This document shows, in pieces, positions 5,757 to 63,469 of a DNA stretch of 64,000 nucleotides; within the stretch, counting starts at the first letter, position 1; each line of letters starts with the position of its first letter. Position numbers and translations under genes: made by a program. The stretch spans positions 30,196,001-30,260,000 of the forward strand of contig OZ076409.1 in assembly GCA_964187785.1 (NCBI GenBank). The letters are read 5' to 3'. Source of the DNA: Amphiscolops sp. MND2022. Its lineage: Eukaryota. The notes beneath the pieces are model-generated. The model was given only the letters and a program-made list of their open reading frames with translations, made no database searches and was not told the DNA's origin.

Positions 5757-5933
5757 GTGATATCTGGGCAGTTTTTGTCTGAGAAAAAAATTGGGACGTA
5801 TGTGGAAGTGGACATGTTCGGATTGCCAGCTGACACAATTAGAAAGGAGTTCAAAACAAAAACTGTTCTCGTCAATGGCCTCAACCCCATCTATTCGCAG
5901 ATTGGATCTGCTGAGCCTTTTGTTTTCCGCAAG
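5757..5933 (+). CDS. PLCB4: PLC-beta exon, C2 domain N-terminal half
   Basis: ttccag acceptor, AAG/gttggt donor; [35 protein letters not shown]...NGLNPIY...FVFRK resembles the PLCB4/NorpA C2 domain. Confidence 0.96.
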
Positions 5934-6258: not shown

Positions 6259-6405
6259 GATTACCAGAAATGCAACACACGAAAACTCAACACAAGAAAA
6301 TTCAACACACGAAAACTCAAAACAAAAAAAAACGGAAACGTTTTCCGTTTTTTTTGTTTTGAGTTTTCTTGTGTTGAGTTTTCTTGTGTTGAGTTTTCCG
6401 TACCC
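6259..6405. mobile_element. Foldback/Mutator-like MITE with 9-bp TSD
   Basis: Near-complete palindrome built from 15-bp GAAAACTCAACACAA units; flanked by identical CGGTGGAAT (6250-6258 and 6406-6414). Confidence 0.8.
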
Positions 6406-6479
6406 CGGTGGAATACTTATCAGGAAAAACTGTGTTAGGAAAAACTGGGCAAAAATGGCCGATAGTTAAATCATGTAAA

Positions 6480-7070
6480 ACATTCCACCCTTGTGTTTAA
6501 TCGAACAATGGAAGAAATGAGTCTTAAGCGGGCAGTTGATGATGTAATCGAGTTTGTTGAAGTTCTCGGAAGTTATTTGTATTCTTTGAAGAGAGATACC
6601 TGTTCGTTGTCGAACAGTTTTGAGCTTTAGAAAGCGGACGTTGATAAAGCGCCCGATAACCTTGTTGAGATGGTGACGACGCGGGCATCCATGGCACTGA
6701 CACCGTTTGGAAACGCCGCATTGTTCCCAAGTAAAATAAGCGTTGCAGTTTCACGTTAAAAAGAATCATACGAATCAGATGTAGTCCCAGCTTTATTAAA
6801 AACATTGCTGAAATAGTTCCGTACGAAGCCCAGTTGTTGAAGTGATTTTAAAGGCCTATCGGCATACTCGTATAGAAGAGTGGACTTCGCATGGGATATG
6901 ATCCAACGTTGGTGGATCTTGTCTGTTCCTTGTACACGCTGTTTCCTCACCTACGGACAAGCTGTGTTTTCCTACAGTGAGTCTCCCAGTACTGGAAATC
7001 GAGGAGCTCTATTGGAGTGGAAGAAAGCTGGGTAGCTATCCTTTTTCCTAGCGAGTTGAACCGTTGAAAT
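6480..7070 (-). pseudogene. Degenerate ORF with weak SGNH/GDSL-like motifs; probably the distal part of the unit at 12890-13560, split by the LINE
   Basis: Minus-strand PVLGDSL near 7000 and PSQQGYRALYQ near 6650-6675 resemble SGNH blocks I and V; frameshifted. Confidence 0.35.
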
Positions 7071-7377
7071 TAGATCGATATATATAAAAATTCTAATAAG
7101 CCCCGGTTTACGGGCTGGCTTTTATCAATAAACATATAGCATTTAATTATTGTACAGTTTAGTAAAACTTGGATTTTATGTCCATACAGTTTCAGTCCGT
7201 CCAGGCTGTTGTGTTATAAATGAATGACTTCAGGTCTTCAACATCGTCCTCATTGTAGACGTCCTTCATTTCAACACAGTCTGGTATTTTATGCAGGATA
7301 CACTCGAAGAAGAAGTGATACGGAGTTTCTTCTGATCTTTTACATTTGCAGAGGGGAGACTCACTTCTGCTGAGTTT

Positions 7378-9071
7378 TCATTTGTAATCTGCAAGTTTCA
7401 TGGTGTTTCCGATGAAGAATTCACATAGCTTGTTTGCAACATAACTGTCACCGTATACCAAGGGTGATAATTTTCTGTTTGATGGTTGGCTCGATTGGAA
7501 ATTTTTTAGGAAGCAGTTGTTGCAGGAGCTGTTCCATCTATTTCGCCAGTGACTTGTTATAAATGAATTGATTTCTGGAGGCGAATATTTCAGTCTTGTG
7601 TTACTTGGGTAAAGTTGGAAAAATCTTTTCAGGCTAGCTTCTAGGAAATTTGCTTTGCTCGAGGGTCTACAGAGAACGGATTGATGACGGTTGAGAACCA
7701 GATCGTTATTTTTCTTTAGCTTAATTGCAAATTTGATGGCAATACTTTCGCAAAGTATGTCTACAGGAGGCTGTCCAATCAGCGCTTGGCTTGCTTGAAT
7801 GGATGGAGATGGGCCGTGTTTGAAAACAGATCTAATGACGGAATTTTGAAAAGTCTGTAGTTTCTCCACATTTTTGTGATACCAAATGGGCGCTCCGTAG
7901 AGTAGTTGTGGTAAAATGATGGTTTTGTATAGAAATACTTGAGTAGTAATTGACAGTGAGTACTTCCTGGTGCATTTACAGGCGATAAGATTCCAATTTC
8001 TCTTGGCTTTGGCAATGCTCTGCTCTGTTTGTTCACGGAATTTTAATTTGTCGTCGATTTGGATGCCTAGGGATCTAGTAGATGATTTTATTTTACAGAG
8101 ATGCCCGTTCATTACAATAGCTGGTTTTGAAAAATTTCCTGCATTAAAAACTATTATCTCTGTTTTGGAACCATTGACCACCATCCGCCATTTCCGGCAC
8201 AAATTTCGAACTGCATCTGCAACTTCTTGTAATGTTGATTCGAGCGTACTGGGGATGGATACTTTGACGAGTACGGCTGTGTCGTCTGCGAATTTGAAGC
8301 GGGGAGAAAGCGTGCCGATGAAGTCATTTATGAACAATATAAATAAGGTTGGTGAGAGAACGCTACCCTGCGGGAGACCACTTTCAATCTTAAAAGGCGG
8401 TGAGTTGAACTTTCCTACTTTGATGAAGGATTCGCGAAAGAGCAAAATTGATTTAATAATGTAAAACATCCGACCCGTGATTCCCACTTGGTTGAGTTTC
8501 AAGAGGAGGCCATCGACCCATACGCTGTCGAAGGCTTTCTCTAGGTCTATATTAAGTAACGCACCACAGGTTTTTGTTCTCAGGACTTCTTCAATTGGAA
8601 GTTGCATTCGATAGAGAGATCGTACTGAGCTACGTTTCTCCCTAAACCCTTCTTGTTCCTCCTCTATGAGTAGGTTATTCTCGAGAAATATTTTCAGTCG
8701 TTTATTCAGAATTCTTTTGAGCAACTTACCGACATGGCTGGATATCGTAAGTGGTCTGTAGCTCGAGCTCGATGTATAGTTTGCCGTGCCAGCTTTTTTA
8801 ATGAAGATTACCTTCGATGTTTTCCAGGGCCAGTTTGCACTCCGGTAGCAATCATTGAAAAAATTTAGCGGACTTTGCTTAATTTTGGGTCCATAATGTT
8901 TCAACATAGACACATGAATGTTATCTGTGTCAAAGGCGGTCGACCGTGGGAGATTCTTGATTTCTTTTTCTGATTCAGGCATCGTAATTTTATCGTCGAG
9001 ATGATGAACATTTTCTACATCAGTGCCGAGCTTTTTGCCTGTAACGCTGACCGTTGCAAAGTGTTCCTGGT
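7378..9071 (-). pseudogene. LINE ORF2 reverse transcriptase (3' part)
   Basis: 566-aa ORF with all non-LTR RT motifs; joins the 10247-10706 segment in frame (QVF-D-QEHF) once 9072-10246 is removed. Confidence 0.93.
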
Positions 9072-10246
9072 TACACATGCGATAAGCAAGTGTTATGGGA
9101 AAGTGCGGGTGCTTTTTTTTCCGCGCGACAACTCTCTCATTTCACGCGGCAACTCGCACGTTTCACGCGTTCGTGGTCTAGTGGTAAGATGCCTGCTTTT
9201 CAACCCAGCGGTTTCGTGTTCGAACCCGTGGGTATGCGCTAATTTTTTTACAAGTCTTCCGAAGCAGAAAGTTCTCACATTTTTTGGCACTATGAGACTT
9301 TTCGGCTTTGTGAGACTTTTTTTCGAAATTGTTTTAATGTCCCCAAAGAGTCCTTTCAATTTTTTTGATATTTTGCAACAGATCGAATGGTAGAAAATTC
9401 CAGAAGGGCCCCTTTTTTCAGAATTTTCGGTACTATGAGACTGTTCAAAATTCTCATTTTTTTTGCAAATTTTTTAAAGACTCCCTTCTTATTTTTTTCC
9501 AAAAATTTTTAATGACAAAGGGTCCACCCTTCTCTTTGTTTGATATTTTGCAACAGAACGAATGTTAAAAAATCCCAAAGGGTCCCTTTCTCCAGATTTT
9601 TCGGCACTATGAGACTGCCATTAAAATTTCTATTTTGTTTTTTTTTTCGAAATTTTTTTAAGACTCCAAAAAGTCCCCTTCAATTTTTCGAAATTTTGCA
9701 ACAGAATGGGTATTAAAAAATCTCAAAGGGTCCCCTCTTTCACAGTTTACGGCATTGTGAGATTTTACAAAAGGAATAATTTTCGTGTTAAAATTTCGAG
9801 GTTTTCTCAGGCCCAGCACGCTATATCCGATTTTTTTTTTAAATAAAAAAACACCAGTTTTCTATGCGACTTTTTTAAAAAAATTTTTAAAACGAAGCCC
9901 CTCCTCAAGTTTTGCCGGAAACGAAAAGTTTTGCGAGAGTTAAGGACTCCTCAAGGTTTTCGCCACTATGCGACTTACCGGAGACCATCAAAAATATTTT
10001 TGGAAAATATTTCCCTCATTTTTTTGTTTTTTTAAAAGGTTTTTCGTTGAGAAAGATGGTTTTTTGCTGTTTTCAGTTGGGGAAGAATGGTTCTCGAGAC
10101 TTATGCGTATCCCTTCGGGTATTTTTGGCGCTGTAAAATTGATGAAATTTTAATGTCCTTTTACCCTTGGTTCTTCGTATGATATTGCTTATTTGGTTTC
10201 TTCATAAGTTCGCAAGTGTTTGCGAAGCACGGCTTCGCCTCTGTGT
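9072..10246 (+). mobile_element. HINE/DINE-like element family B with tRNA-like head
   Basis: 5' hairpin ACAC(A/T)TGC-GATAA-GCAAGTGT, 3' sub-TIR TCGCAAGTGT plus hairpin GCACGGCTTCGCCTCTGTGT; no TSD; near-identical copy at 62295-63469. Confidence 0.85.
9165..9241 (+). other. tRNA-derived (Glu-like) Pol III promoter segment inside the HINE
   Basis: A-box TGGTCTAGTGG and B-box GTTCGAACCC at tRNA spacing; stems imperfect, so probably not a functional tRNA. Confidence 0.6.
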
Positions 10247-12889
10247 CAAAAACTTGTTCCTGAAGATGACGTCCTTCGAAGAATGTTTGTTGCAGCTCTT
10301 CCGCTATTTCGGTTTCAGTGATGGCCAGTGCTCCATTTGCCTTCTTCAGTGGGCCAATCGGACTCTCTTCTGGTTTAAAAATCGTTCTATAGTTCTGCCA
10401 AAAGGATTTTCCTCTGTTGTGATTTAGGAACGTAAGTTTTTCTTGCATCCATTCAGAGGCCTTTTCTGCTAGAAGTTTCTTGAAATCCATCTTGGCAGCT
10501 TCTAATTCGTAACCGTTGCTGTAATTCGAGTGAAACTTGAACTTCTTGCGCAGTTTCCTTAAATTTGAGCTTTTTTCAGTGAGCTCTTGACACCAGAACG
10601 GTTTGCTATGTCTGGAGGTGACTTTCAAGGGAATGCATTTGCTAGTTACTTCATGTATTGCAGCCCTTATTGTGTCCCATCTTGTGTCGAGATTATCAGC
10701 ATCCAAGGTTTTGGCAATAGATTCATCGCATTCCTCTTCTAGGGCACAGGACCTTTTATTTCAGTCCGCTTTTTCGAGCCAAAGTTTTGTCGAACTTCTT
10801 ATTTGTTGATCAGGGACTTGACTGGTAACAAAAACGGGCACGAGACCGCGTTGCGGTGCACCGGTGAAAAGTTCAGTCTCAGTGTCTGTGGTGAGCTGAA
10901 ATTTATGTTTTTTTTTCAAGTGATCCGGTTACAATACAAAGATCTATTACGCTGGAGCCGTTACTGGCTAGGAAGGTTTCTTCTCCATCGTTAACTATGA
11001 TGTCATCGCTTGCGATATTTTCCACCAACATGTCACCATTTTTATTACAAGATGAGTCACCCCAATAGTAGTGCCTGGCATTGCAATCCCTCATGAACAA
11101 CATACCATCCAGGTCAGGTCATGTTTTACTATGAAGTTCGCAACGTTTTCCTTTTGACGAAGAAAACTCGTCATCTGTTCAGTCTGATTAGGTCTCAAGT
11201 AGGTCGTTCCAACGACAATTTTGAGTCCAGCAATTGAGGTTAGTATCCAAGCATTGTCAAAGTCCTCCGCTTCAAGATCACTCAGTCTTGTATTAAAAAT
11301 ATCGTTTCTGATGACCAGTGCTATACCCCCATAAGAACTTTTGCAAGTTGGTTCAGTGTAATAATTGGTGAAAGCGTTCTTCTCAAGGATCTTTTTAGTT
11401 TCATTTAGACAACAAATCATTGGTTTGTGTGTGTTCATGTAGTTGTTCAAAACCACTTGACTGCGGTCACTAATGCCACAAATATTAATCTGCAAGAAGG
11501 ATAAGGTTTTTTCAACCATTTCTGAGAGTCTATCCACTGCATGAGGTGGATGCATTCCTCTCGAGTTTAAAACTAAGGTTAGTTGACGCTGGTACACATC
11601 GCATAATTGATAACTTGCTGGATGGTCGCTGCCGCAATTTGAACATTTTGGCGTCTTTGTTTTGTTCTCGCAATCCTGGAATGAGTGTTCCCCACAGCAA
11701 TGTCCACACTTGGTTTCTGATTTGCAATTTGCGCTCACATGTCCGAACTTCTGGCACTTGAAGCATCGTATGATTTGAATCTCTTTTTGAATGAATGGTG
11801 ATGCGGAGTAATAGATCATATCGATAAACAGACCGTGTTCCAGTGCTTTCTGGACGTCGCCATCCGTTTTAAGCACTAACTTCACTGTTCCCAGGACTGT
11901 TGAATCCCTCTTTACAAATCGAGTTCCTTTCGATCCGTCGAATTGTTCATTCAGTGAATTTTGAATTTCCTTGTCAGTTAATTCTTTTGCTACGCTTTTA
12001 ATGATAACAGCTCTTTTGGGTTTTTCGGTGTTAGTAATTTTTCTCACAATGGACCCCTCCCCCAAGTCTTTCGGTTGCCAACTATCATACACTTCATCCG
12101 CCTCTTCCTTTGATGCAAACTCTAGATGGATATTTCCTCTTGTGGTGTTGAAAGCCTACATTAGTCGTTTCAACGGGTAGTGTTTGGCAAAATCTTTTTT
12201 AATCTGAATACTGCTTGTGAATTGTTTTGTTTTCACAACTATGAGGATGTTTTCAGGTTTTCGTTGTCGTTGTTTTTCAGCTGTATGAGTTTTTGACTTT
12301 CGAGGATGACCTAATGCACTAGCATAGGAGGCATGGTTTGTCTGCGGTGCGAGCACTCTCGACTCTTGCCCTGCCAAATTCTGCTGTATAGTAGAATTCG
12401 TTTCGGTGCAAATGTCTCTGAGTTCGTCAAATCGATTTGAGGTCTCCGTAATCAGAGCTTCATTTCGGGTGATGCTTTGAGACATGGTCTCTTTGATAGT
12501 TGTCATACAGTTTTCTATGTTAGCTTTTATGTTTGCAAGTCCACATTGGAGTGTTCCTTTTATTGTTGGATGACATGATGTGCAGAACCACATTGCTCCG
12601 TCTGTTTGCCCAAGTAGTTCAATTTTTTTCGAAAGTTGTGCACATGAACCATGAGTCAAATTTCCACATGAATCACAGAAAATAGAGGGATGAGAACCAA
12701 CGGGAGTGGAACATGAACCGCAGAGTCTATTTTTGTTGACTTTCCTTTTATTTCGGTCACTCATTTCGGTTACTCAATACAAAGCTGAAGGATATGTGAC
12801 ACTTACAAGACCAAGCACTATAACCACGGTAACAAAACCAGGTCACTGTGCTTAGTCTCAAAGGTCACACAAAGGAGACTGAAAGACAC

Positions 12890-13482
12890 TTACTGGTTCC
12901 GACTTTTTTTCTGGCTTCTTCGGCTTCTCTTCGACAGCCTCTTGTTGGGGTGCCGCTGTTGCGTAAGTCTTTCAAGGTTCCTCAGATTGTGAGATATCAC
13001 TCGAAATGTTTTGAGTTCGACGTTGGGTTTCTGATGAAGTTGAGAATATTCAGCAAAAATTTTGGGGAGTCGTCTTTTATTCTTTGGCAGAAGATCTCTG
13101 ACAATATTGATGATGAGGATTCCAGATTTCTTCAGCTGCTGATAGATGTGTTCAGTGTTTGTCTTTTGACAGTAAACGATGGCTACAATTTGATTCCGAT
13201 ATAATGACAGGTTTTGAAGGAGTTCATCCAACGAAAGAGGCCTGTTGTTGTTAGTAGCGTGCTCGAAAATTGAATTGCTTATAATTCATGCCAGATCAAA
13301 ATTTCATGATGTGGCAGGAACTTTGATAGTTGATATTGAACTGTTTTGCGTGTGTTCACTGAATGAGTGTTGAAGCTCAAGCCGGGTATAGCACGAACAC
13401 GTTGAGATAGCTGTTGCTGCTGTTGTTTCGGTAGATTTCTCAGGGCGTGATGAAGGGAGCTTGCGCCAAGGATGAAAAACAT
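12890..13482 (-). pseudogene. ~197-aa ORF with one frameshift (possible SGNH-like fold), preceded by a leader-like motif
   Basis: MFFILGASSLHHAL...AIPGLSFN...ILIWHE / ISNSIFEHATNNNRPLSLDELL...IVAIVYCQ...EYSQLHQ...basic tail; two ORF-track fragments join across a frameshift near 13280. Confidence 0.55.
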
Positions 13483-13534
13483 GTACGAAACAATCAATCA
13501 AGTATCTGAAATCACACGTGATAAACTTATTAAA

Positions 13535-13560
13535 TTTAATAAGTTTATCACAACAATTAG
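13535..13560 (-). other. Spliced-leader-like motif (relic) with inverted partial duplication
   Basis: CTAATTGTTGTGATAAACTTATTAAA on the minus strand; shares a 20-nt core with 43869-43899; 13518-13551 is a perfect 34-bp palindrome. Confidence 0.6.
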
Positions 13561-13718
13561 ATCGAATCTAACAATTTTTGGACATGTTTTCAATTTTAAA
13601 ATGGTAATTTACATGTTGTTTTTATCAGCTCAATATGAATGCCTTGATGTATTCGAAAGTCTGTTGGAAATGGTTGAATTTTGGATTGGATTGTTTATAT
13701 TGATGATTGTTCGTGCAG

Positions 13719-13923
13719 ATAGTTCTTCCTGAGTTGGCCGTATTGCGCTTCGGGGTCTACGACGAGGGAGGCAAGCTACTGGGCCAGAGGGTGCTGCCCC
13801 TGGAGGGCCTGCAGTCCGGCTACAGGCACATCTCACTGCGCACCGAGGGAAACATTCCGCTCTCTCTTCCTGCCCTCTTCTGCCACATCGTCCTCAAGAC
13901 TTACGTCCCCGAGGGATACTCAG
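13719..13923 (+). CDS. PLCB4: PLC-beta exon, C2 domain C-terminal half
   Basis: tgcag acceptor, CAG/gttaca donor (phase 1); [70 protein letters not shown]-rich relative to flanks. Confidence 0.96.
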
Positions 13924-22241: not shown

Positions 22242-22410
22242 AAACTACGGTCCCTGTTTTGGGTTTTGATAATTATATTCGCATGTTTTTTGTTATAATG
22301 TTTCTTCATCCGATCAGCTTGAGAGGCTCTCAAGCTGATCGGATGAAGAAACATTATAACAAAAAACATGCGAATATAATTATCAAAACCCAAAACAGGG
22401 ACCGTAGTTT
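22242..22410. repeat. Perfect 169-bp palindrome (84-bp arms, 1-nt centre)
   Basis: 22242-22325 is the exact reverse complement of 22327-22410; the arms consist of BED coding sequence plus the inner hAT TIR tip. Confidence 0.95.
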
Positions 22411-29999: not shown

Positions 30000-32060
30000 A
30001 GATCAAAATACAATTTGAGTCAACATTATAATTTTTCGCACAAAAATGAGTACTGTACGCTCTGCACGATTTGAAGTTGGTGGAATCCATTTCAAATTTC
30101 CTCAAGATTCGGGTTTAGAAGCTTTTTGAGAAAGCTTCTGGCAAATTGTTGGAAGCCTTGGTCACTATTGCTACCGATAACGTCAAGCATTCTTTTACTG
30201 CTATCTTGCCCGCTTACAACTCGATAACTGATCCATACATTGCCCCCACTACTCCATTCTCAAAGTCTTCATTCTCAATAATTTTGGAACTTTTCGACAG
30301 ATATTTTCCCGTTTTTGGGAAACGAGAAATCACATCGTAGAACAAAACACGAACATCGTACATATAGATGTTGTCTTCTTGAAGTTTCATGGTGACTGAT
30401 TGATTGTATCACTGCCATTTCTTTTGCAAGAATTGTTTTTATTGCACATGACGAAGTCAATGTGCATTGCAGTCCAGCTAAGAAAGTTTTTTTTCCACAA
30501 TAGTCAACTTCATAATGAGCGCCTTTTAGACAAAAGCCAAAACCCCTGAGAGATTCGAACCTGCAGCCTCCCGATTGCACGGCATAAGTGTTTGACCTCT
30601 GTGCCATAGCGACGTTATTGAACAAAGTTGAACTGTTGATTATATACGTATGCGATTAAAATAATATATATACGCATATTAAAATAATGTCTTCGTCATG
30701 TGTTGCGAAGCACCGCTTCGCCTCTGTGTTTGAATTTCTTTAGCGTTTGGTAAAAAAATCATAATAATCACTACCCGCATTGTCAATGTAATCTTTGATT
30801 TCAAGAAACCTCGTTACAAGGCTGAAGTCTGCTGACCACCGTGTTGTTCAACGTAAAATTGGCTTATTTAAAGTTTAATCCAACTCAAAACAATGAAGTT
30901 GTGGTCACGTGACTAGAATTTTTTACTTCTCACAACCTGGTTAATCTAGGGCATAAAATATTGTTTTGGCTTGCAATAAATAATCAATATTTTATAACCT
31001 AAAAATAATAATTGACATGGTGTAAGTCAAAAAAATAAAATTTTTTGATAATGGATTGCAATTATTTCAGAAGCAATTTATTTTTGGGATGCCTGACTGT
31101 AAAGCAACGGTGATACGCAAACAAAAGCAATTTTTTGATAATCAAATGAAAACTTCAGCTCCTCCTTATCTGAAGCCGGAAAATTACCTTTTCTGTTGTA
31201 CAAAAATAAATCGAAAAAGGAAGTGTACAGATCACAATAACAACTTCGCCTTGGTTTATCAGCTTCATCAACGATGTTGATCCGCGATATAAATGTCCTT
31301 CGTATGCTCAAATAGTGAAAAACGCAACGGAAATCTGACGCTTTCCGCTCTGAAATGGTACAAACTCTGAACACCCTGACATACAGTATAGCTATCGATG
31401 GATTCGAATCAATGGGACATCCTTCATTGGCTGCACTTACATTGACTTTCCATCTTCGCAGGTGATTTCTAAAATGGTATTCCTACGGGAGCTTCTACAA
31501 GGACCGAGTGCTGTAGAAATTTTGAGCGCATTGAAAAACAAGTTCTCGGTGCCGTTCTCAATATCCACTGATAATTGCAGCACCAATAAAAAAAGCTTTC
31601 CAATTTATCACAAAAACGGACTTCATGAAATACTGTGGAGTTGAAAATGAGCAGCTGGAAGAAGTTTGCATTGTTGAACATCAGTCCGAAACTATTCTTC
31701 CTGCTGAATTCATCAGCTGGATTGGATGCGCCGTACAAATTTTGCACCTCTGTTTCTGATGGACTGAAACAATGACGTAATTATATCGCAATGCGATAAT
31801 AAAATGCTGCAAAGTTGCTCAACTCGATCATCGTTCCACGCAACTCAGCGCGCACCCTATTGTCGTATAAAGCTGAACAACAACGTTCGTTGGAATTCAA
31901 CAATGTTAATGATAAACATATTTTTGGAAAATAAAGAACAATTCAATTTAAAAGACCAGCGTCGAAACTCCGGAATGATTATTTTTTCTCGCTATGATAT
32001 TACTAATTTTCAAAATTAGAAATTGAGAAAAAGATACCCAGATACACGGCTGGAAACTGG
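30000..32060. mobile_element. Decayed hAT-like transposase remnants
   Basis: Plus strand IAIDG (~31390), ISTDNCSTNKK and KLNNNVRWNSTMLM; minus strand WIPPTSNRAER (~30060-30090). Confidence 0.6.
30538..30612 (-). other. tRNA-derived head (TGC, Ala-like) next to a family-B HINE 3' end (30703-30730)
   Basis: Minus strand TGGCACAGAGG...GTGCAA...GGTTCGAATCTC; adjacent gaagcaccgcttcgcctctgtgtt terminus. Confidence 0.5.
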
Positions 32061-32101
32061 AGAATCATGTTTCATGCTTTTCCTAAACACCAGGTGGCCT
32101 T

Positions 32102-35100
32102 CTGGATTCTCTTCCGGAGTCGTCGAGTTGGTGAAGATAAGAGAGTAGACTTCAATTGAAATTATGCAGAGAGTGGGAAATTTCATTCAGAAGAAATTAA
32201 ACTTGGCGTCTTTGATTTGGCTTAAGAGAAACAGTGAGTCAGCTTTTGATCACTCATAAATGTGTGTCAATTTAATTTGGAGTTCACGACATACTCCCCA
32301 CTGGCAGATGTTCTTTTTTGATCAGATTTTCATCATCGTCCAAAGTATCTTCAAGGCGTTTTAAAGCTTTAGTGAAAGCTTTTCGCCGTGGTCCGCATTC
32401 ACTGCTCAGATTTATCTCGATGTCTTCGGGTTCTTCAATGTGCGGTAATGTTGAGAGGATTCATGCATTGATGAGATGTGACGGTGTCACTGCTGTTCGT
32501 GTTATAGGTGTTGCGTCGCTTTCCACGTATGTTTGGGGTCTGTTGTTGACTGTGGTTTCGGTTTCTTTAGGATCGTCCGTAGTTCTGTTTGTGTCAGTAA
32601 AGCCTCTAGGAGAATTTTTTGACAATAGCGACAAGTCTTTCGTACAATTCCTCCCATGCCCGTGATCTTCCAGGATTGTGTATCCATTTGATTTGGTGCT
32701 TACTGAAGTGTTGTTGATAGCGTTCTTCCAGAAAAGTCTTGATTGCTGATTCTCCTGCAATGAATCAAGTTGCATTATCCGATTCAACTGTTGTTGGAAT
32801 GGATTTTCCCGCGCAGTAACGGCGGAACGCGAGCAAAAGTTTTTCGGCTGTTAGATCTGTCACAAGTTCGAGATGTGCTGCACGCGTGATGCAGCAGGTG
32901 GAAATTGCGAGGTAGCTTTTGGAATGTTTTACGGTGTTGGATTTGACGAAGAGGTGTCCTGTATATTAAATTCCGACAGCACAGGGTGGTGCTGAGTTGA
33001 TGCGATAGCTTGGTAGCGCTGGTTGGTTCGGGTATCTTTAACTTCTGCTGTCTATGCAGCGGCAGGTGTTGCATTTCCTGAGAATCTTCTGGGTCAAGCT
33101 TCCTCCTCTGGGTATCCAAAACTGTGTTCTTAAGTGTATTAAAGTTGCTCTTGTTCCGAAGTGTAGAGTTCACTTTTGGCAGTCTTCCACAATCAGCTTT
33201 GCGAAATGATCCTTGACATCTTCGGGTTTACCCTGTATTGCTGTGATTGTTACTGCGTTGAGTTTGGTCTGTGTTAAGGATATCTTCGGGTCTACCAAGT
33301 CTTTCAGTATAGGTTCCTATCTGTTGAGTTTTTGTTTCGAGGGTATCGTCGAGCTTACCCACTGTTGATTATTCTTGCTTTCTAGGGATGAAAGTTGCGT
33401 TTTCCAATGGTTCCGAGATGTCTTGATGAGTTGTCTTCAACTTCTCTAAGACCCTAAGTGATGGGCATGCCACCAAAGTTGTTGTCGGGATTCTTTCGAC
33501 TGACTTATGCGGGTAGCAATGTCGGCTGGATTGAGGTCCGTTGGAATGAAGAAAAAACTACATCTGTAGTTATTGATCATGTTCACTCGGTTGCGACCGA
33601 AAGTCTTCAGTGTCTTGGTTGCTTTGAGCCAAGCCAGGCAACCTTGTGAATCGCTCATTCTGTGGTTTCAATTTGTAAATCTGAGAGCGAGCTATCCAAA
33701 TTTGTTCAGGCGCTTTTTCTCTGTAATTGGTATATGTCTTGGTCTTACGAATAATGCCTAAATCGACAGCAATTGATTTCCATTTTTTCTTCTGTTTTGG
33801 TAGTTCTTCGATGTCCAATTTTCTTTCCAAAGGTCTCTCATGAAGAGTTTGGCTTTGAGTTATGTTGAGGCTGTCCATCCAAAAGGGTCAAAATGTGTCG
33901 CAAACTGGCTGAAAATTTTTTTTGTCCAAACGATTCCGAGTGTTGCTTGAATGGTTCCAGTGATAACTGATCTTCTTCGGTGGTCCACTGTAGTCCAAGG
34001 ACGTATCTCGTTTTCCGGCAATTCGTTGCTGTTCCACGCGATTCATTATGTTTGAATGGTTTGAAGTCCATTCGCGAATGTTCAGTGATGCTTCGTGAAA
34101 GAGCTTTCTGGTCCTTTCAGAGTAACTTTTTGCTTTTGTGTCGGTTCCCGTGACCAGGTTGTCCACAAGTTTGTTCTTTCCAATGTCCAGTGCTGTGTGC
34201 TCCAGGTTGTGTATCTGTAGATGGTGCTGTAAAACGGCTGCGAGGATGAAAGAAGTTGCTCGAGATGGTGGACAGCTAGTTGTCCAGTTCCTTGATCTTC
34301 GTCTTCGGGATTGCGTAGTTAGTAGAATCTCAAGTTTCTTCGGTCTTCTTCTTTGTTTTCACTTGGAGAAAAGCTTTTTCGAGATCTGGTGTCCAGGCAA
34401 TTCGATTTAGTCGGAATTTGAAGAGTAATTCAACTAGGCTGTTTGTTAAACTGGGTCCTTCCCAGAGAAAGTCGTTGAGTGACATTCCCAACCTTTTGTC
34501 TCTGCAACTGGCGTCAAAGACAACCCTGACTTTGGTGTGAATCGAGTCACCTTTGTAGACGGCATGCCAGGGCAGATAGCTGCACTTGTCGTCTTTTTAG
34601 TTCAGGCTGTTGAATCCGCATCTTTGGTATTCTCCAAAAATGTCCTTCAGCTTCTGGAAGAGTTGTTTGTCGGTTGAAACTTTCCCGATCATTTTTCTTG
34701 CTCTGTAATATCCTATGTGTCTCTTTGTCGGGATCTTTCATTTGTCACATTCGGGTGTCCATGGTAGAGATGCTGTATATTGTCCTGTTTCCGGGTTCTG
34801 GACTAAATTGTGAAAAAAGTCATCTTATTGAATAACTTGTGATCGGTAAACGTTGGGCCCATCTAGTATCCATTCGAAGAGCTGCTGTTGTTCTTTGATG
34901 TGTTATTTGTCTGTAACAATGAGAGCTGTTTGTGCTGTTGTGAAGTAACTGTCAATCTGTAGAGCATTGTGTTGGCCACCACTGACCAGATATCCAAATT
35001 TGGCTTCTACTGCGGCTGTTTTATTGTTTAGATGGAAGATTCCGTCTTTTTCCACTGAGTATTGAAAGTCTGATGCGATGAAGTGGTCGATTTCTCTTCC

Positions 35101-36677
35101 TTCGTTGACTGGTTCCACAACAGGCTAGTCCTTCAGTTGTTCTTCTTGTCAAAGTTTCGGTCTACAGAGCTTCGGTGCAACAATTGCTTTCAGTTGAACA
35201 TGTCCTTTGGCTTTGATGTGATGTTGCTTATGTTGTACTATCTGTCCGTTTTGTCTTCCGATCCAATTTGTGAAATGCTAAGTCGTTAATGTGATGTTGT
35301 AGGTTGCTGAAGGTTCTGCGCTAGGTTGAGAGCGCAAATGGTGTCGGAGTTTCCGTCGTCCAGTAGAAGTGCTGCTCTCACGGTTTTGATTCCACTTGGT
35401 GCCGTTGCCATAAATGTCTTTAGGATCCCGCTCTGAATGTAGTAGGTGAAGTCTGATTGTATTTCTGTTGTATTTTGCTGTGTCTTCTTTTCTCCGATGC
35501 TGAAAATGCTTTTCTCCGATCCTCAAGAAGTGCTGTGTGGTGTTTTTGTTTAGATGCAAAAAACGATCCATTTTGGTGTTTTTGAGATAATTGAAACATA
35601 GTCCTTTCCGTTTGGCTACTTCGAGGCGATCTTTAACGTTGGTGCATTTCAGGCCGTCGCTGGCGCGATGCGATGATCCACAGAAAGAACACTCCGCAAA
35701 TGGTTTGGTTTTTTCTATGTAGTCTTCCGTTCTGTATCCAGTTTCGTGTTGTGTTTTTGAATTTTGTGTTTGGTAGGTGTAAAGGCAGTAAGATGGGAAG
35801 CTCGAAACATCTTTAAACGGTAGCATCTCTAGCTTCGGGACTCTTGTATTCGTTTGTTGGAGGGTGCTGTTTCCACCGGAGTTTCTTCTTTGCTGTGTTG
35901 ATTCATCTCTGACTGTTGAAAGTCTTTTTACCATCTAGTTCAAAAAGACAATTGTCAATTCTTCGACGGTAATAGTTTTTTCCCATGGCTTCAATTTCTT
36001 CGTTTTTCTTTGACGGTCTTCAAGTTATGCCAGGGCTTTCAGTGTTGTATCTTCATTTGGTAGAAATTCTAATAATAACCGGCTATTAATAACCGTCGCA
36101 TATAACCCTTGTGAGTTTCAATCGCAGTTATTGCGGTTCGTCAATGATGCTTCCTGTTGGCTGTATGGCTTCCATTTGATTTACACCTGTTGGAGATCAT
36201 GGTCTGGACACCATTGTATAATTTTACTCGTCGAGAAAATAATCGTTATAAATGAAATATTGCGTTGTGTTGAGTTTTGATAAAAATGGGAATTATGTTC
36301 GATTTGAAATGCAGGGTTTAAATAATGTTAACTAAATGGTAGAGCTGATAAAGGTTGTCGTTCAAGAATTAGGGGGTTTGTTGTAATCTTACTCTATTCA
36401 AGGAACTTCTATCCAAATCCTTTTGTGGCACTTGTTGCCCAGAAAAATTATGTGGATCTTACTTTGGAAAACTGTTGAAATTCCTTGTGGATTCCCTTCT
36501 GGAGTCGTCGAGTTGTTGAAGATAAGAGAGTAGACTTCAATCAGAATTATGGAGAGTGAAAAGTTTCATTCAAAAGTAATTAAACTTGGCGTCTTTGATT
36601 TGGCTTTAGAGAAATGAGTCAGCTTCTGATCACTCATAATTGTGAGTTTATTCTCAATTTGGTTGGAGTTCACGACA
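32102..36677 (-). mobile_element. Degenerate Bel/Pao LTR retrotransposon with both LTRs (3' LTR truncated)
   Basis: LTR repeats ending ttggagttcacgaca at 32291 and 36677; PPT GGGGAGTA before the 3' LTR; TGGTG PBS-like at 36213 downward; gag knuckle CSFCGSSH..C..VKDRL...KGLCFN; RT RVVFDAS, LNDFLWEGP, WTSNH; FIPTDLNPADIATR. Confidence 0.92.
36215..36677 (-). repeat. 5' LTR (TGT...ACA, ~463 bp)
   Basis: Begins TGTCGTGAAC on the minus strand and ends ATACA, 1 nt before TGGTGTCCAGACC; about 190 bp match 32102-32291. Confidence 0.8.
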
Positions 36678-39959: not shown

Positions 39960-42900
39960 AAAGCTATTCCGGAATTCTATACTCAATAAATTCAAGATGT
40001 GATCAATCAAAAGTATTTTCACTTTCCAGACCTAAGTGTCACTCTTTTATTCAAATCAAAGAGAGAATCAACTGGTTCTTGGTTTCTAGAAGGAAAGTAT
40101 TCGTTAAAAAATAGTCATTGATCCGAGTGAAAAATTTTTAGGCAGATTTCCCCGAAAATTCAGTTCATTGAAAAACGTCGGCACTGTGTGATACAGAATT
40201 CTTACAATGCTTGTTACGGGTTATTGGCACTTGTGCTCTTTCTGCCACCCGTAGTTCGTAACAAGATGTAGTTTGTTGGGTTATCATCGAATTAAGAAAC
40301 TCAAGGCAATGTTCTTTTTTCAGGCATTTCAGAATGATTTTTGTAATTTCATACAAATGAAATTCATAAACAGTATGAATTTTATTGCTGTTCATCACTT
40401 CCCTGACACTAGCTGAGAAGCTCAGGTGAAAGATACATCTAATTCTTTTTTGCATCTTCAAAATGGGTTGCAAATTCGAATACATGGTTCCTCCATATAT
40501 GAGCACTCCATACTGAATTATTGGTTTGACATGAGTTTTATAGTAGATCAACAACGAAGATTGCGTCAGCACTTGACGTGCCTTCAACAAAACATGGAAA
40601 CATTTATTCTATTTTTTCTTACCCAATTCAATGTGGTCCTTAAATGTAGGTTCATCAACTAGAACTCCCAGTTCTTTCACACTTGAAGCTTTTTTCAATG
40701 CAATGCTTTCGAACTTCAAGCTTTCGAGTTCGTGTTCTTTGTTACCGAAGATTTCCGGCTTTGATTTTTCAAGATTGCATTTTAATTTTTTGTACTTCAT
40801 CCATTCATCAATCGTGTGAAGTGAGTTGTCCAAAGATAATTGATCTGACTGACTTAAATTTTCAAGAACATTGGTGTTATCGGCAAATTTCGTCACTATG
40901 GCGCTAATGCGATACGGAAGGTCATTAACATGAAGCATGAAAATTAGACGTCCCAATTACCGAACGCTGACTTATAGTGACTTCCACAGTTTCCGAAAAT
41001 TCATTTCCAATTTGCATGTATTGAAATCGGTCGCTCAAATAAGCATGTATCAGTTTGATGATAGGGTTGAAACCTAAGTTGTACAACTTCTCCAACAAAA
41101 GCCTGTGGTTTCTGTATCAGTGGCTTTTTTGAGTTCCAAGATACACATTTTCCTTTCTACTTATTGATGATATGATTGATTCTATCACATTCAAGCGCAT
41201 CGATTGTTTGTCTTTTTCGTCTAAATGTGAATTGATTTCCATCAAGCAAACAAAAGGTATGTGAAAAAGAAACGATGCAATTGTAAATTACTCGTTCAAA
41301 AATTTTGCCAATCCAGACAACATTGAGACATGTCTATAAATGTCAAATTTATTTTTATCTCCGTCTCTGTAGATTGGAATCACTTTAGCTATTTTTAGGC
41401 TTTCCGGAAAATTTCCTTCGCGCGCAGGCATCGGTTGATGAGTATTCGGAGCGGTTCAATATAAGGACCTTATCACTAATTCCATCGGGGCCAAACGAAA
41501 TCTTGTTCTTGTGTTATTGCACAAAATTACAAAGTTCCAAACCAATGACTGGTAGACGAAACATCGATTGCACTCTCGGGGAATGTGGTAGACTCATTTT
41601 TTTAAGGTCAATCGTCTTTTGATTGTTTGAGCCACCTGCTACAAAATAGTTGTTGAAATCATTTAATTTTTTTCTCGATAGCTACGGCATTGTTCGTTCA
41701 TCTCTTTTACCTAGTACTTCATTCAAGTTACTGTGAAATGCTTTGCTATCGGCTCCAATGACCTTGAACTTTCCGTTGGTAAAGACATGTTTTTTTTCTA
41801 TTTATCAATTTATTACGATTTCTCTAGTCTCTAAATCGCTGTTTCAAATTTCCATCATCGGGTGAAAGGCATACTTTCTTATACAACTCATCACGGGGCC
41901 TGATTAGACGTTTACTTCTGTTGTCCACCCATGACTTGTGTATTTTAGTAACCGGACTCTCCGGAGCAAAATGAACCAGAGCAGGATAAATTGGTTGTTC
42001 GCAGTAGTTCCTCGCCATCGTTTATTTCAATGCTCTCTTAGTTGACTGAAAGCAGAATCGATTCTTTATGACTTTTCCGAGGACTTGATATTTCACGAGC
42101 TTCTTCATGTTACGAGTGACAATTTTTCTTTCCGGGGGAAAATTAGTTTTTCGAACCTGACCCACGCCATGAAATTGTCAGTGAATGTACTATGATAAAC
42201 GTGATTTTCAAAGACAGGATTATCGGAGTAGATGTGATCCAAACAAGTTTTGAATTCCTTTGAGCTCTCGTCACTTCTAAAGGGCTTCTGAGTTCAAGAT
42301 TCTTATTTCTCATAATCTGTAATTCTGTCGAGTGAATAGTTGGGACCGAAAGTTCGATTTTGAATTTTCCGGAGACGGAAATTTTGCCATTGTTCGCTCG
42401 CAATCTCATTTATTCAAGTTCCAACCATTCACAATATTGAGATTTAAAAACCTTTCTGACTCTGCGGTAGGTGACGCAAACGATTCCTTCGAAGGATTAC
42501 ATAATTCTCACTATCAACCCTTCATGAGCAGTATCTTTCAGTTGTACTTGGTAGGCAAACCTTCTATCATTAAAGAGGCCCACTACCTCTCTTTTCCCGT
42601 CAGACCTTAACTAATTTTAAGTTACTAATTTGTGGTCACCCAATTTGTTTGGATTGCTGTTTTGTTTTCAGTAACGCACGTTTCGGTGAACGCTATTATG
42701 TTCGCATTGACTGTTTTTGTCTTTAGATAGACTTCAAACTCATCGAAGTGATTGTCTAGTGATCTTTTGTTCGTATTTAGGATTGTTCTTAATGGTTCTT
42801 GGGTTTCACTGCGTTTGCATTGTAAGAAAAATCAGAATTATTCAACGATCTAACATTGTGTTTTTGACAGTTCGTGGAAGAACTAATAATCTCAATTTCA

Positions 42901-62294: not shown

Positions 62295-63469
62295 TACACT
62301 TGCGATAAGCAAGTGTTATGGGAAAGTGCAGGTGCTTTTTTTCCGCGCGACAACTCATTTCACGCGGCAAGTCGCACATTTCACGCGCTCGTGGTCAAGT
62401 GGTATGATGCTTGCTTTCCAAGCCAGAGGTTTCGTGTTCGAACCCGTGGGTGTGCGCTAATTTTTTTACAAGTATTTCGAAGCAGAAGATTCTCACTTTT
62501 TTCGGCACTATGAGACTGTTCGGCTTTGTGAGACTTTTTTTCGAAAATTTTAAATGTCCCTAAAGAGTCCTCCGTTCATTTTTTTGATATTTTGCAACAG
62601 ATCGAATGGTAGAAAATTCCAGAAGGGCCCCTTTTTTCAGAATTTTCGGCACTATGAGACTGTTCAAAATTCTCATTTTTTTTGCAAATTTTTTAAAGAC
62701 TCCCTTATTTTTTTCCAAAAATTTTTAATGACAAAGGGTCCACCCTTCTCTTTGTTTGATATCTTGCAACAGAACGAATGTTAGAAAATCCCAAAGGGTC
62801 CCTTTTTCCAGATTTTTCGTCACTATGAGACTGCCATTAAAATTTCTCATTCTTTGTTTTTTTCTCGAAAATTTTTTAAAGACTGCAAAGAGTCCCACTT
62901 TATTTTTTTGAAATTTTGCAACAGAATGGATGTTAAAAAATCTCAAAGGGTCCCCTCTTTCACAGTTTCCGGCATTGTGAGATTTTTCAAAAGAAATAAT
63001 TTTCGTGTTAAATTTATGTTTTCTCAGGCCCAGCGCGCTATATCCGATTTTTGCTTTTTTGAAAAAAAGACCGGTGTTTTTTCTATGCGACTTTTTTTGA
63101 AATTTGTTTCACCGAAGCCCCTCCTCAATTTTTGCCAGAAACGAAACATTGCGAGAGTTAAGGACTCCTCAAGGTTTTCGGCACTATGTGACTTACCGGA
63201 GACCAAAAATATTTTCGAAAAATTTCGAAATTTTTTTCCTCATTTTTTTGTTTCAACGTTTTTCGGGGAGAAAGATGGGTTTTTTGCTGTTTTAAGTTGG
63301 GGAAGAATGGTTTTCGAGACTTATGCGTATCCCTTCGGGTATTTTTGGCGCTTTTAAATTGATGAAATTTTAATGTCTTTTTACCCTTGGTTCTCTCCGT
63401 CTGATATTTCTTATTTGGTTTTCTTCAAAAGTTTGCAAGTGTTTGGGAAGCACGGCTTTGCCTCTGTGT
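62295..63469 (+). mobile_element. HINE/DINE-like element family B with tRNA-like head
   Basis: Colinear close copy of 9072-10246; perfect 5' hairpin ACACTTGC-GATAA-GCAAGTGT; T-run flanks. Confidence 0.87.

Follow-up and report, generated by a model that had tools for sequence, protein, structure and literature searches.

Many LINE families of the Amphiscolops genome begin with the host spliced leader, and the leader of one heads a portable cassette encoding a predicted SGNH-fold protein

The window, a stretch of 64,000 nucleotides from Amphiscolops sp. MND2022 (contig OZ076409.1, positions 30,196,001 to 30,260,000), contains a LINE lying antisense within an intron of a phospholipase C-beta gene, between two of its exons (Table 1). 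It is the decayed copy of an autonomous three-ORF LINE that occupies 7079-13560 on the minus strand. When the segment 12890-13560 was searched against its own genome at the DNA level (46 matches from 40 scored of 70 candidates), it continued unbroken into the LINE at 94-95% identity in six of 29 other fetched loci. Three copies read from 10-kb stretches (L063, L064, and L065) are intact: the match spans 13560 to 7078 except for 9072-10244, and three open frames follow the leader in the order ORF0 (195 aa from its ATG, with a predicted SGNH fold), ORF1 (about 419 aa), and the APE-RT ORF2 (1065 aa). Their target-site duplications measure 15 bp, 11 bp, and 14 bp, respectively, while that of L082 is weak; L082 and L066 are 5'-truncated copies. 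No LTR is present, and the 3' end is a (TA)n tail. In Pfam, ORF2 of L064 matched Exo_endo_phos_2 (E 7e-12) and RVT_1 (E 7e-34), and the ORF1 domains are PHD (E 1e-6) and zf-CCHC (E 8e-4, just under the curated cut-off). Possessing an AP endonuclease together with an RT, target-site duplications, a simple tail, and truncated copies, the element is an APE-type non-LTR retrotransposon. An RNase H at the end of ORF2 is the mark of the I clade in the strict sense; as the 1065-aa ORF2 gave no match to the RNase H family in Pfam at E 0.05, membership in that clade was rejected, and the label 'I-type' is not established though the CCHC ORF1 fits the I/Jockey group; among the 120 ORF2 homologues listed, 119 bear uninformative names.

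Table 1. Features of the LINE insertion and of its flanks, in window coordinates
Feature	Position	Strand	Remarks
Phospholipase C-beta exon before the host intron	5757..5933	+	
Decayed hAT-type transposase fragment	6313..6807	+	Flank, outside the element; source of most of the claimed second ORF
Target-site duplication, 3' copy, 11 bp	7068..7078	-	
(TA)n 3' tail of the LINE	7079..7086	-	
ORF2	7196..11513	-	AP endonuclease 10912-11513, RT 7993-8868; broken in window copy; ends approximate
Later repeat insertion	9072..10244		Missing from other copies
ORF1 (PHD finger, CCHC knuckles)	11510..12764	-	Premature stop 12156-12158 in window copy; low end approximate
CTTCAG, candidate acceptor ahead of ORF1	12785..12790	-	Last position of the shared cassette is 12779
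Predicted long hairpin between ORF0 and ORF1	12793..12871	-	z -7.8; conserved in 11 relatives
ORF0, basic C-terminal tail	12890..13482	-	195 aa intact; one-base frameshift near 13286 in window copy
TTTCAG, host-type trans-splice acceptor motif kept in the element	13506..13511	-	Candidate in window family
Anti-leader arm, reverse complement of the leader's 3' part	13518..13535	-	
Spliced-leader remnant, 25 of 32 nt	13536..13560	-	8 nt lost, which include the leader's end and the loop of the hairpin
Target-site duplication, 5' copy, 11 bp	13555..13565	-	Last 6 bases are the leader's first bases (microhomology)
Next phospholipase C-beta exon	13719..13922	+	

The preliminary description had interpreted this region as a leader-capped unit without an RT, holding two SGNH-like ORFs and interrupted by the later insertion of a LINE at 7075-12881. 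Several of its observations hold: the minus-strand leader at 13560-13536 is followed after about 50 nt by the ATG at 13482, and the ORF given as about 197 aa (195-197 codons) has its single frameshift, the quoted motifs, and a basic tail. However, the target-site duplication encloses leader and LINE together and the intact copies are colinear from ORF0 through ORF1 to ORF2, so what had been taken for a unit and a LINE inserted into it is a single element. Far from lacking an RT, the segment runs on into the APE-RT ORF2 in the intact copies, and, as ORF0 belongs to an autonomous three-ORF LINE, both a host retrocopy of a trans-spliced, possibly bicistronic mRNA and a non-autonomous family of leader plus esterase-like ORFs were rejected. 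The two sides of the supposed unit, moreover, were never joined in 49 other loci containing ORF0 DNA. Although its leader and one SGNH-fold ORF are real, we give a split RT-less unit practically no credence. A Helitron/Helentron or DNA transposon, as might be read from the terminal palindrome, was also rejected: the palindrome consists of the spliced leader (SL) and an anti-SL arm, and tail, target duplication, and RT are present.

The left part of that unit, a supposed second decayed ORF at 6480-7070, proved to be mostly hAT debris. The motifs VLGDSL and PSQQGY do lie in minus-strand frames of this segment, but in different ones, and a profile built from 199 ORF0 relatives, which detects the real ORF0 at E 4e-48 and 2e-26, found nothing there on either strand (best domain E 0.63). 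The plus strand of 6313-6807, in turn, matches hAT-type transposases (tblastn E 2e-12), and the matching proteins are 555-557 aa long with DUF659 and a weak hAT dimerisation match; 6808-7067 lies outside this assignment. One other genomic match, at 68%, was found for 6400-7090, and 6400-7067 was matched in none of the 49 other loci holding ORF0 DNA. Elsewhere in the window, near-perfect palindromes occur at 6281-6398 (59-bp arms), where one interrupts the flank of the hAT fragment, and at 22242-22410 (84-bp arms). A weak match to the ORF0 profile (E 0.009) lies at 32671-32790 on the minus strand, inside a stretch of skewed composition (32000-36000), possibly a further decayed element. The repeat inserted in ORF2 is built of internal 150-175-nt units and recurs at 62354-63469, near the window end, and inside the ORF0 DNA of L025.

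The ORF0 product is predicted to adopt a flavodoxin-like SGNH fold. Its structure model has a pLDDT of 90.9 and resembles GDSL/SGNH structures; the best Foldseek match is a GDSL-like lipase (E 3e-4, TM 0.46), and the best Z is 10.7, with an rmsd of 3.9 over 154 residues. Among 199 sequences, S8 is conserved in 160, G34 in 173, N70 in 183, and H150 in 174, SGNH blocks I, II, III, and V being assigned by motif position rather than by superposition. The Asp of the DxxH word is missing, as position 147 is commonly S, L, Q, or K, and the conserved D66 might substitute for it. The SGNH likeness noted earlier is thus borne out for this one ORF at the level of predicted fold, whereas a profile match is lacking: none of 68 ORF0 members matched a GDSL family in Pfam at E 0.1, and a PDB sequence search with ORF0 gave no match. 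Atlas rows at 0.89 carry Lipase_GDSL_2 on 21-23% of members, which serves as a lead only, and the absence of the ZfL2-1 esterase among the structural matches listed is evidence neither way. ORF0 is under purifying selection, with dN/dS values of 0.22, 0.22, 0.25, and 0.36 in four comparisons with L064. Its family is also large: all 150 relatives scored of 3309 genomic candidates match, as do 1005 clusters (at 50% identity) of the protein library, and Pfam misses this SGNH-fold family. Ten ORF0 relatives looked up among the clusters came with neither name nor taxon. Gag-like frames lie downstream of many genomic relatives (about 47% identity), and one such locus has DUF5641 nearby, which we take to be a BEL/Pao-associated domain, hence our label BEL/Pao-like. 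The esterase-type protein of the element ZfL2-1 binds phospholipids, according to the part of the source consulted (PMC3905857); by analogy with it we infer, with less support, that ORF0 could be a positively charged helper that handles RNPs or membranes and has little or no esterase activity.

The leader and ORF0 form a cassette that is shared between distant RT lineages. The sequence 13560-12779 is common, at 85-93% DNA identity, to four loci (L068, L069, L070, and L074) that then continue into another ORF1 and whose RT shares just 30% identity with the L064 RT. In a third lineage (L077, L263, and L264; RT 29%), the head of SL and anti-SL is the same and ORF0 is 41% identical, and relatives with a similar ORF1 carry either a different ORF0 (L229, L191) or none (L221, L225). 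The cassette represents a dated example of LINE clades exchanging a 5' module. Decayed relatives of the cassette also occur (L071, L072, L075, L076, and L081); the rejection of an RT-less element applies to the other copies. Regarding translation, an acceptor-like CTTCAG lies ahead of ORF1, and the cassettes of L063-L065 contain 5 ATG versus 16-17 CAT; internal ATGs are depleted, but the presence of three of them speaks against pure leaky scanning to ORF1.

Two predicted hairpins accompany the cassette. At its head, the intact copies would fold into a 19-bp hairpin with a GAAA loop (z -4.8), represented in the window copy by a 34-bp palindrome at 13518-13551. The combination of SL and anti-SL was found at 27 places in the genome (44 strand hits; control 0), and two other families show a 13-bp predicted version covering the AG of the SL; in these and in the window family, the hairpin is predicted to bury the A or AG at the end of the SL, mimicking how, within the SL RNA, the SL pairs with its own intron. 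In the second hairpin, between ORF0 and ORF1, 93% of cells pair across 11 related sequences and four of 28 pairs change on both sides. Its covariation support is modest, since 40 of 500 shuffles reach the same.

The leader motif, correctly recognized as such in the preliminary description, is a true SL: its sequence is identical to the published SL of the acoel Symsagittifera roscoffensis, as far as the source was consulted (PMC9911081), and SL RNA gene arrays were found. A 19-mer of the SL occurs 2069 times in the genome (reversed control 0), including a tandem array of SL RNA genes on contig C1 at 16.23-16.41 Mb (L045-L062), whose pure part repeats every 904 bp. A GT donor and a U-rich motif, labelled 'Sm-like' by us, come after the SL in each of the 18 array loci read; a few genes of the array carry variant leaders. 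Apart from these, 642 dispersed loci are SL-headed, defined as carrying the SL's final 20 nt and then any base except G. From 100 of them listed in genome order, 70 were fetched and two duplicates dropped, and in 53 of the resulting 68 an AP endonuclease lies within 1.5 kb of the SL, as detected with a profile built from ten of the same SL-headed loci. ORF0 was found in 5 of the 68, and many of the remaining loci show PHD or knuckle frames. The RTs of SL-headed elements fall into several deep lineages (a tree of 25 rows from this genome, broken frames excluded). Many unrelated LINE families of the Amphiscolops genome begin exactly with the SL.

This holds for a family that was retrieved independently of the leader, using as query the 349 nt behind the SL (67 candidates, 40 scored, 30 fetched). 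Of the 30 copies, all carry 23 nt or more of the SL's 3' end and 18 carry the full 32 nt, two of these being a tandem pair; the flanks are unrelated, and no upstream sequence is shared among the 30. Furthermore, in 55 of 93 loci the 12 nt outside the search word match the SL gene, most of the others looking 5'-truncated, and no family-specific SL variants were seen. Private changes in the genomic SL occur in the copies L006, L009, L019, and L292. A target-duplication search at 20 further SL-headed loci returned mostly 8-12 nt, indistinguishable from chance, and nothing at two of them. Upstream of the SL, some junctions carry extra bases that copy part of it, inverted at L064:374-382 and direct in L274, L281, L009, and L036, resembling fold-back or re-priming of a cDNA end.

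The sequence just behind the SL bears on how these 5' ends arose. In 47 of 68 sampled loci, the SL continues with TTTC. The host parent gene (L304) of an SL-headed retrocopy has TTTCAG exactly where the retrocopy has the SL, and since the two junctions coincide, TTTCAG is a host acceptor, as judged on one gene. Retrocopy L128, which is the same locus as L303, is 100% identical to this parent over the first 402 nt; the gene is presumably eIF2A-like. Ordinary trans-spliced RNA drops TTTCAG, yet SL-headed LINEs retain it behind the SL. Three families hold both a long form, in which the SL is followed by TTTCAG and then by the element body, and a short form, in which the SL is joined directly to that body (L188 versus eight copies; L138, L139, and L202 versus five; L182 versus L242), although the sample had been enriched for short forms by the preceding search, so their share cannot be derived from it. 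These genomic junctions show that LINE RNA of three families other than that of the window is trans-spliced in cells that transmit insertions; what the short forms prove is the use of TTTCAG as acceptor, whereas they give no such proof for the AG of the SL itself. Within the window family, no copies were found with a junction at the family's own TTTCAG or at the acceptor ahead of ORF1 (one unrelated match, control 2). Tandem relic leaders were likewise not found, the single match being an SL gene.

One might suppose that SL-headed copies are dead ends, namely processed products of a rare source copy that has an outron and a promoter. The host retrocopy did arise in such a way, and the independently retrieved family was examined in 30 of its 67 candidates; however, all 30 bear the SL and none shows an alternative upstream sequence, a processed product would have lost the acceptor that is retained behind the SL, and many divergent families with open frames could not multiply sources in this manner. 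Hence, we consider dead ends quite improbable.

Instead, we lean, if only slightly, toward the hypothesis that host trans-splicing, and not a promoter of their own, gives SL-headed elements a new 5' end in each cycle. A genomic copy would be transcribed by read-through from flanking DNA, and its old leader would serve as the acceptor, with a branch-point-like CTAAT and the first AG 25 nt later at the leader's end, assisted by the TTTC(AG) just behind the SL. A fresh capped leader would then replace the old one, and the RNA that is reverse-transcribed would keep the 5' end of its parent. Splicing at the downstream TTTCAG would yield the rarer shortened copies and, with less support, the anti-leader hairpin may tune the choice of AG or protect the 5' end. 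Reuse of the SL's own AG on read-through RNA would fit several sequence properties. The SL contains a single branch-point-like CTAAT with no AG between it and the SL end; many families have just 8-13 nt from the SL to the first ATG, and several lack any AG in between (TTTCCGG, TTTCCTA, TTTCATA), leaving little room for a promoter or another acceptor. The predicted hairpin that buries the A or AG of the SL's end, in contrast, should hinder its use as an acceptor and counts against renewal. So do families that start with A directly behind the SL, without TTTC (clusters 5, 10, and 12), and the negative searches for internally spliced copies of the window family and for tandem relic leaders. In C. 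elegans cis-splicing, an AG upstream of, and within 18 nt of, the consensus UUUCAG is favoured in the germline, in the part of the report available to us (PMC10946429), and in Hydra the SL is found on about 30% of TE long reads, as given in the portion of that source consulted (PMC12220107).

The principal rival would have the SL captured once per lineage and inherited as DNA, with SL and TTTC forming an internal promoter for transcription from +1, while the hairpin prevents renewed trans-splicing. As a rule, LINEs have internal promoters, and in Ascaris the SL exon serves as a promoter element. To this background can be added that the hairpins mask the AG of the SL and mimic the SL-intron pairing of SL RNA, and that TTTC words are kept in many families even without an AG. 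In trypanosomes, L1Tc sets a precedent with an internal promoter that produces unspliced RNA, according to the part of the source consulted (PMC1874656). Independent inheritance, however, would allow family-specific SL variants, none of which was seen, and the 55 of 93 loci identical to the SL gene outside the search word argue in the same direction. Moreover, the outron would measure just 38 nt in the families with TTTCAG splicing, and the copies sit in random flanks without the upstream elements that snRNA-type promoters require. We regard an internal promoter as unlikely, albeit less so than dead-end copies.

Renewal by trans-splicing could be extended to a broader and more tentative picture, whose chances we place somewhat short of even. 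Dozens of unrelated LINE families would be promoterless, with the deposited SL as a complete acceptor by which read-through RNA is recapped, and the cassette of SL, anti-leader hairpin, ORF0, and intergenic hairpin would be swapped between distant clades, operon-like. The usual answers to how a LINE obtains its 5' end and its transcription at new sites are an internal promoter or a ribozyme; host trans-splicing, if true, would be a third route and would explain the near-absent 5' UTR of many families. It would also predict a germline-specific choice between two adjacent AGs, and the genome offers natural tests in the two junction forms per family, the AG-less variants, and the hairpin variants.

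Elements inserted into SL RNA genes are known: NeSL, CRE, SLACS, and CZAR are RLE elements with this target. As in these, SL sequence adjoins the 5' end of the element, but the LINEs described here are of the APE type and lie scattered in unrelated flanks that contain no SL gene sequence. SL-tagged retrogenes have been described in dinoflagellates (PMC5585692, PMC12014239), in which, as we suppose here, a trans-spliced RNA was reverse-transcribed and the SL left in DNA. The Hydra case (PMC12220107) resembles ours in that TE RNAs are trans-splicing substrates, although the Hydra data concern transcripts and not genomic 5' ends. In the portions of these reports consulted, both differ from the present LINEs, where the SL is the regular 5' end of autonomous elements with a retained acceptor and no tandem relics. 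R2 and L1Tc/ingi carry a 5' HDV-like ribozyme (PMC3185411, PMC3383444), and the working proposed here would be similar insofar as a device at the head cuts the 5' end from a longer co-transcript; the accessible parts of those sources describe a ribozyme, whereas our proposed device would be the host spliceosome, and an Rfam search of 6900-13700 returned no ribozyme.

Esterase-type ORF1 proteins are carried by CR1, L2, and RTEX non-LTR elements, for example ZfL2-1 (PMC3905857). ORF0 resembles them, as portrayed in the part of that source consulted, in being a basic protein with an SGNH fold encoded upstream of ORF2 and keeping the active-site Ser and His. There, however, ORF1 itself contains the esterase domain, in most cases preceded by a coiled coil, whereas here it is a separate ORF of about 195 aa preceding a complete PHD/CCHC ORF1; unlike those esterases, ORF0 starts at block I, is without the DxxH Asp, and has no Pfam or PDB sequence match. 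In bdelloid rotifers, GDSL ORFs are common to LTR elements and Athena PLEs (PMC5408684), and one SGNH ORF type likewise extends here across retroelements, namely three LINE RT lineages and the BEL/Pao-like elements. The rotifer GDSL ORFs, as far as the source was consulted, are ORF3s with intact catalytic residues, whereas ORF0 is the 5'-most ORF and is accompanied by the leader and two hairpins. The element belongs neither to the rotifer SGNH-ORF elements nor to the ribozyme-headed LINEs. Among titles and abstract openings, a set lying outside Repbase reports and most subscription papers, we found no animal LINE families with the SL as genomic 5' end and no separate SGNH ORF preceding ORF1.

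Several further SL-headed loci are of note in their own right. A second SL-headed LINE occurs in the window, from 43897 down to about 40600 on the minus strand, with three mismatches in its leader, which is followed by TTTTAG and then an ATG; RT fragments lie at 40612-41422, and its ORF1 is presumably L1-like. Other SGNH-like frames, more canonical by eye, stand 300-1200 nt behind the SL in L133 and L193, the former holding GDS, ND, and DxxH words, again by eye. The frames behind the SL of L134 and L196, likewise judged by eye, resemble proteins of LTR elements and not of LINEs. L184-L186, L190, and L197 form a family that starts with A directly behind the SL and is without TTTC, and its frame, in our estimation, resembles a PHD finger and the start of an RLE-type ORF. 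The intact copy L063, finally, is likewise antisense and adjoins an exon of a host gene (L063:3780-4178), which we take to be chaperonin-like.
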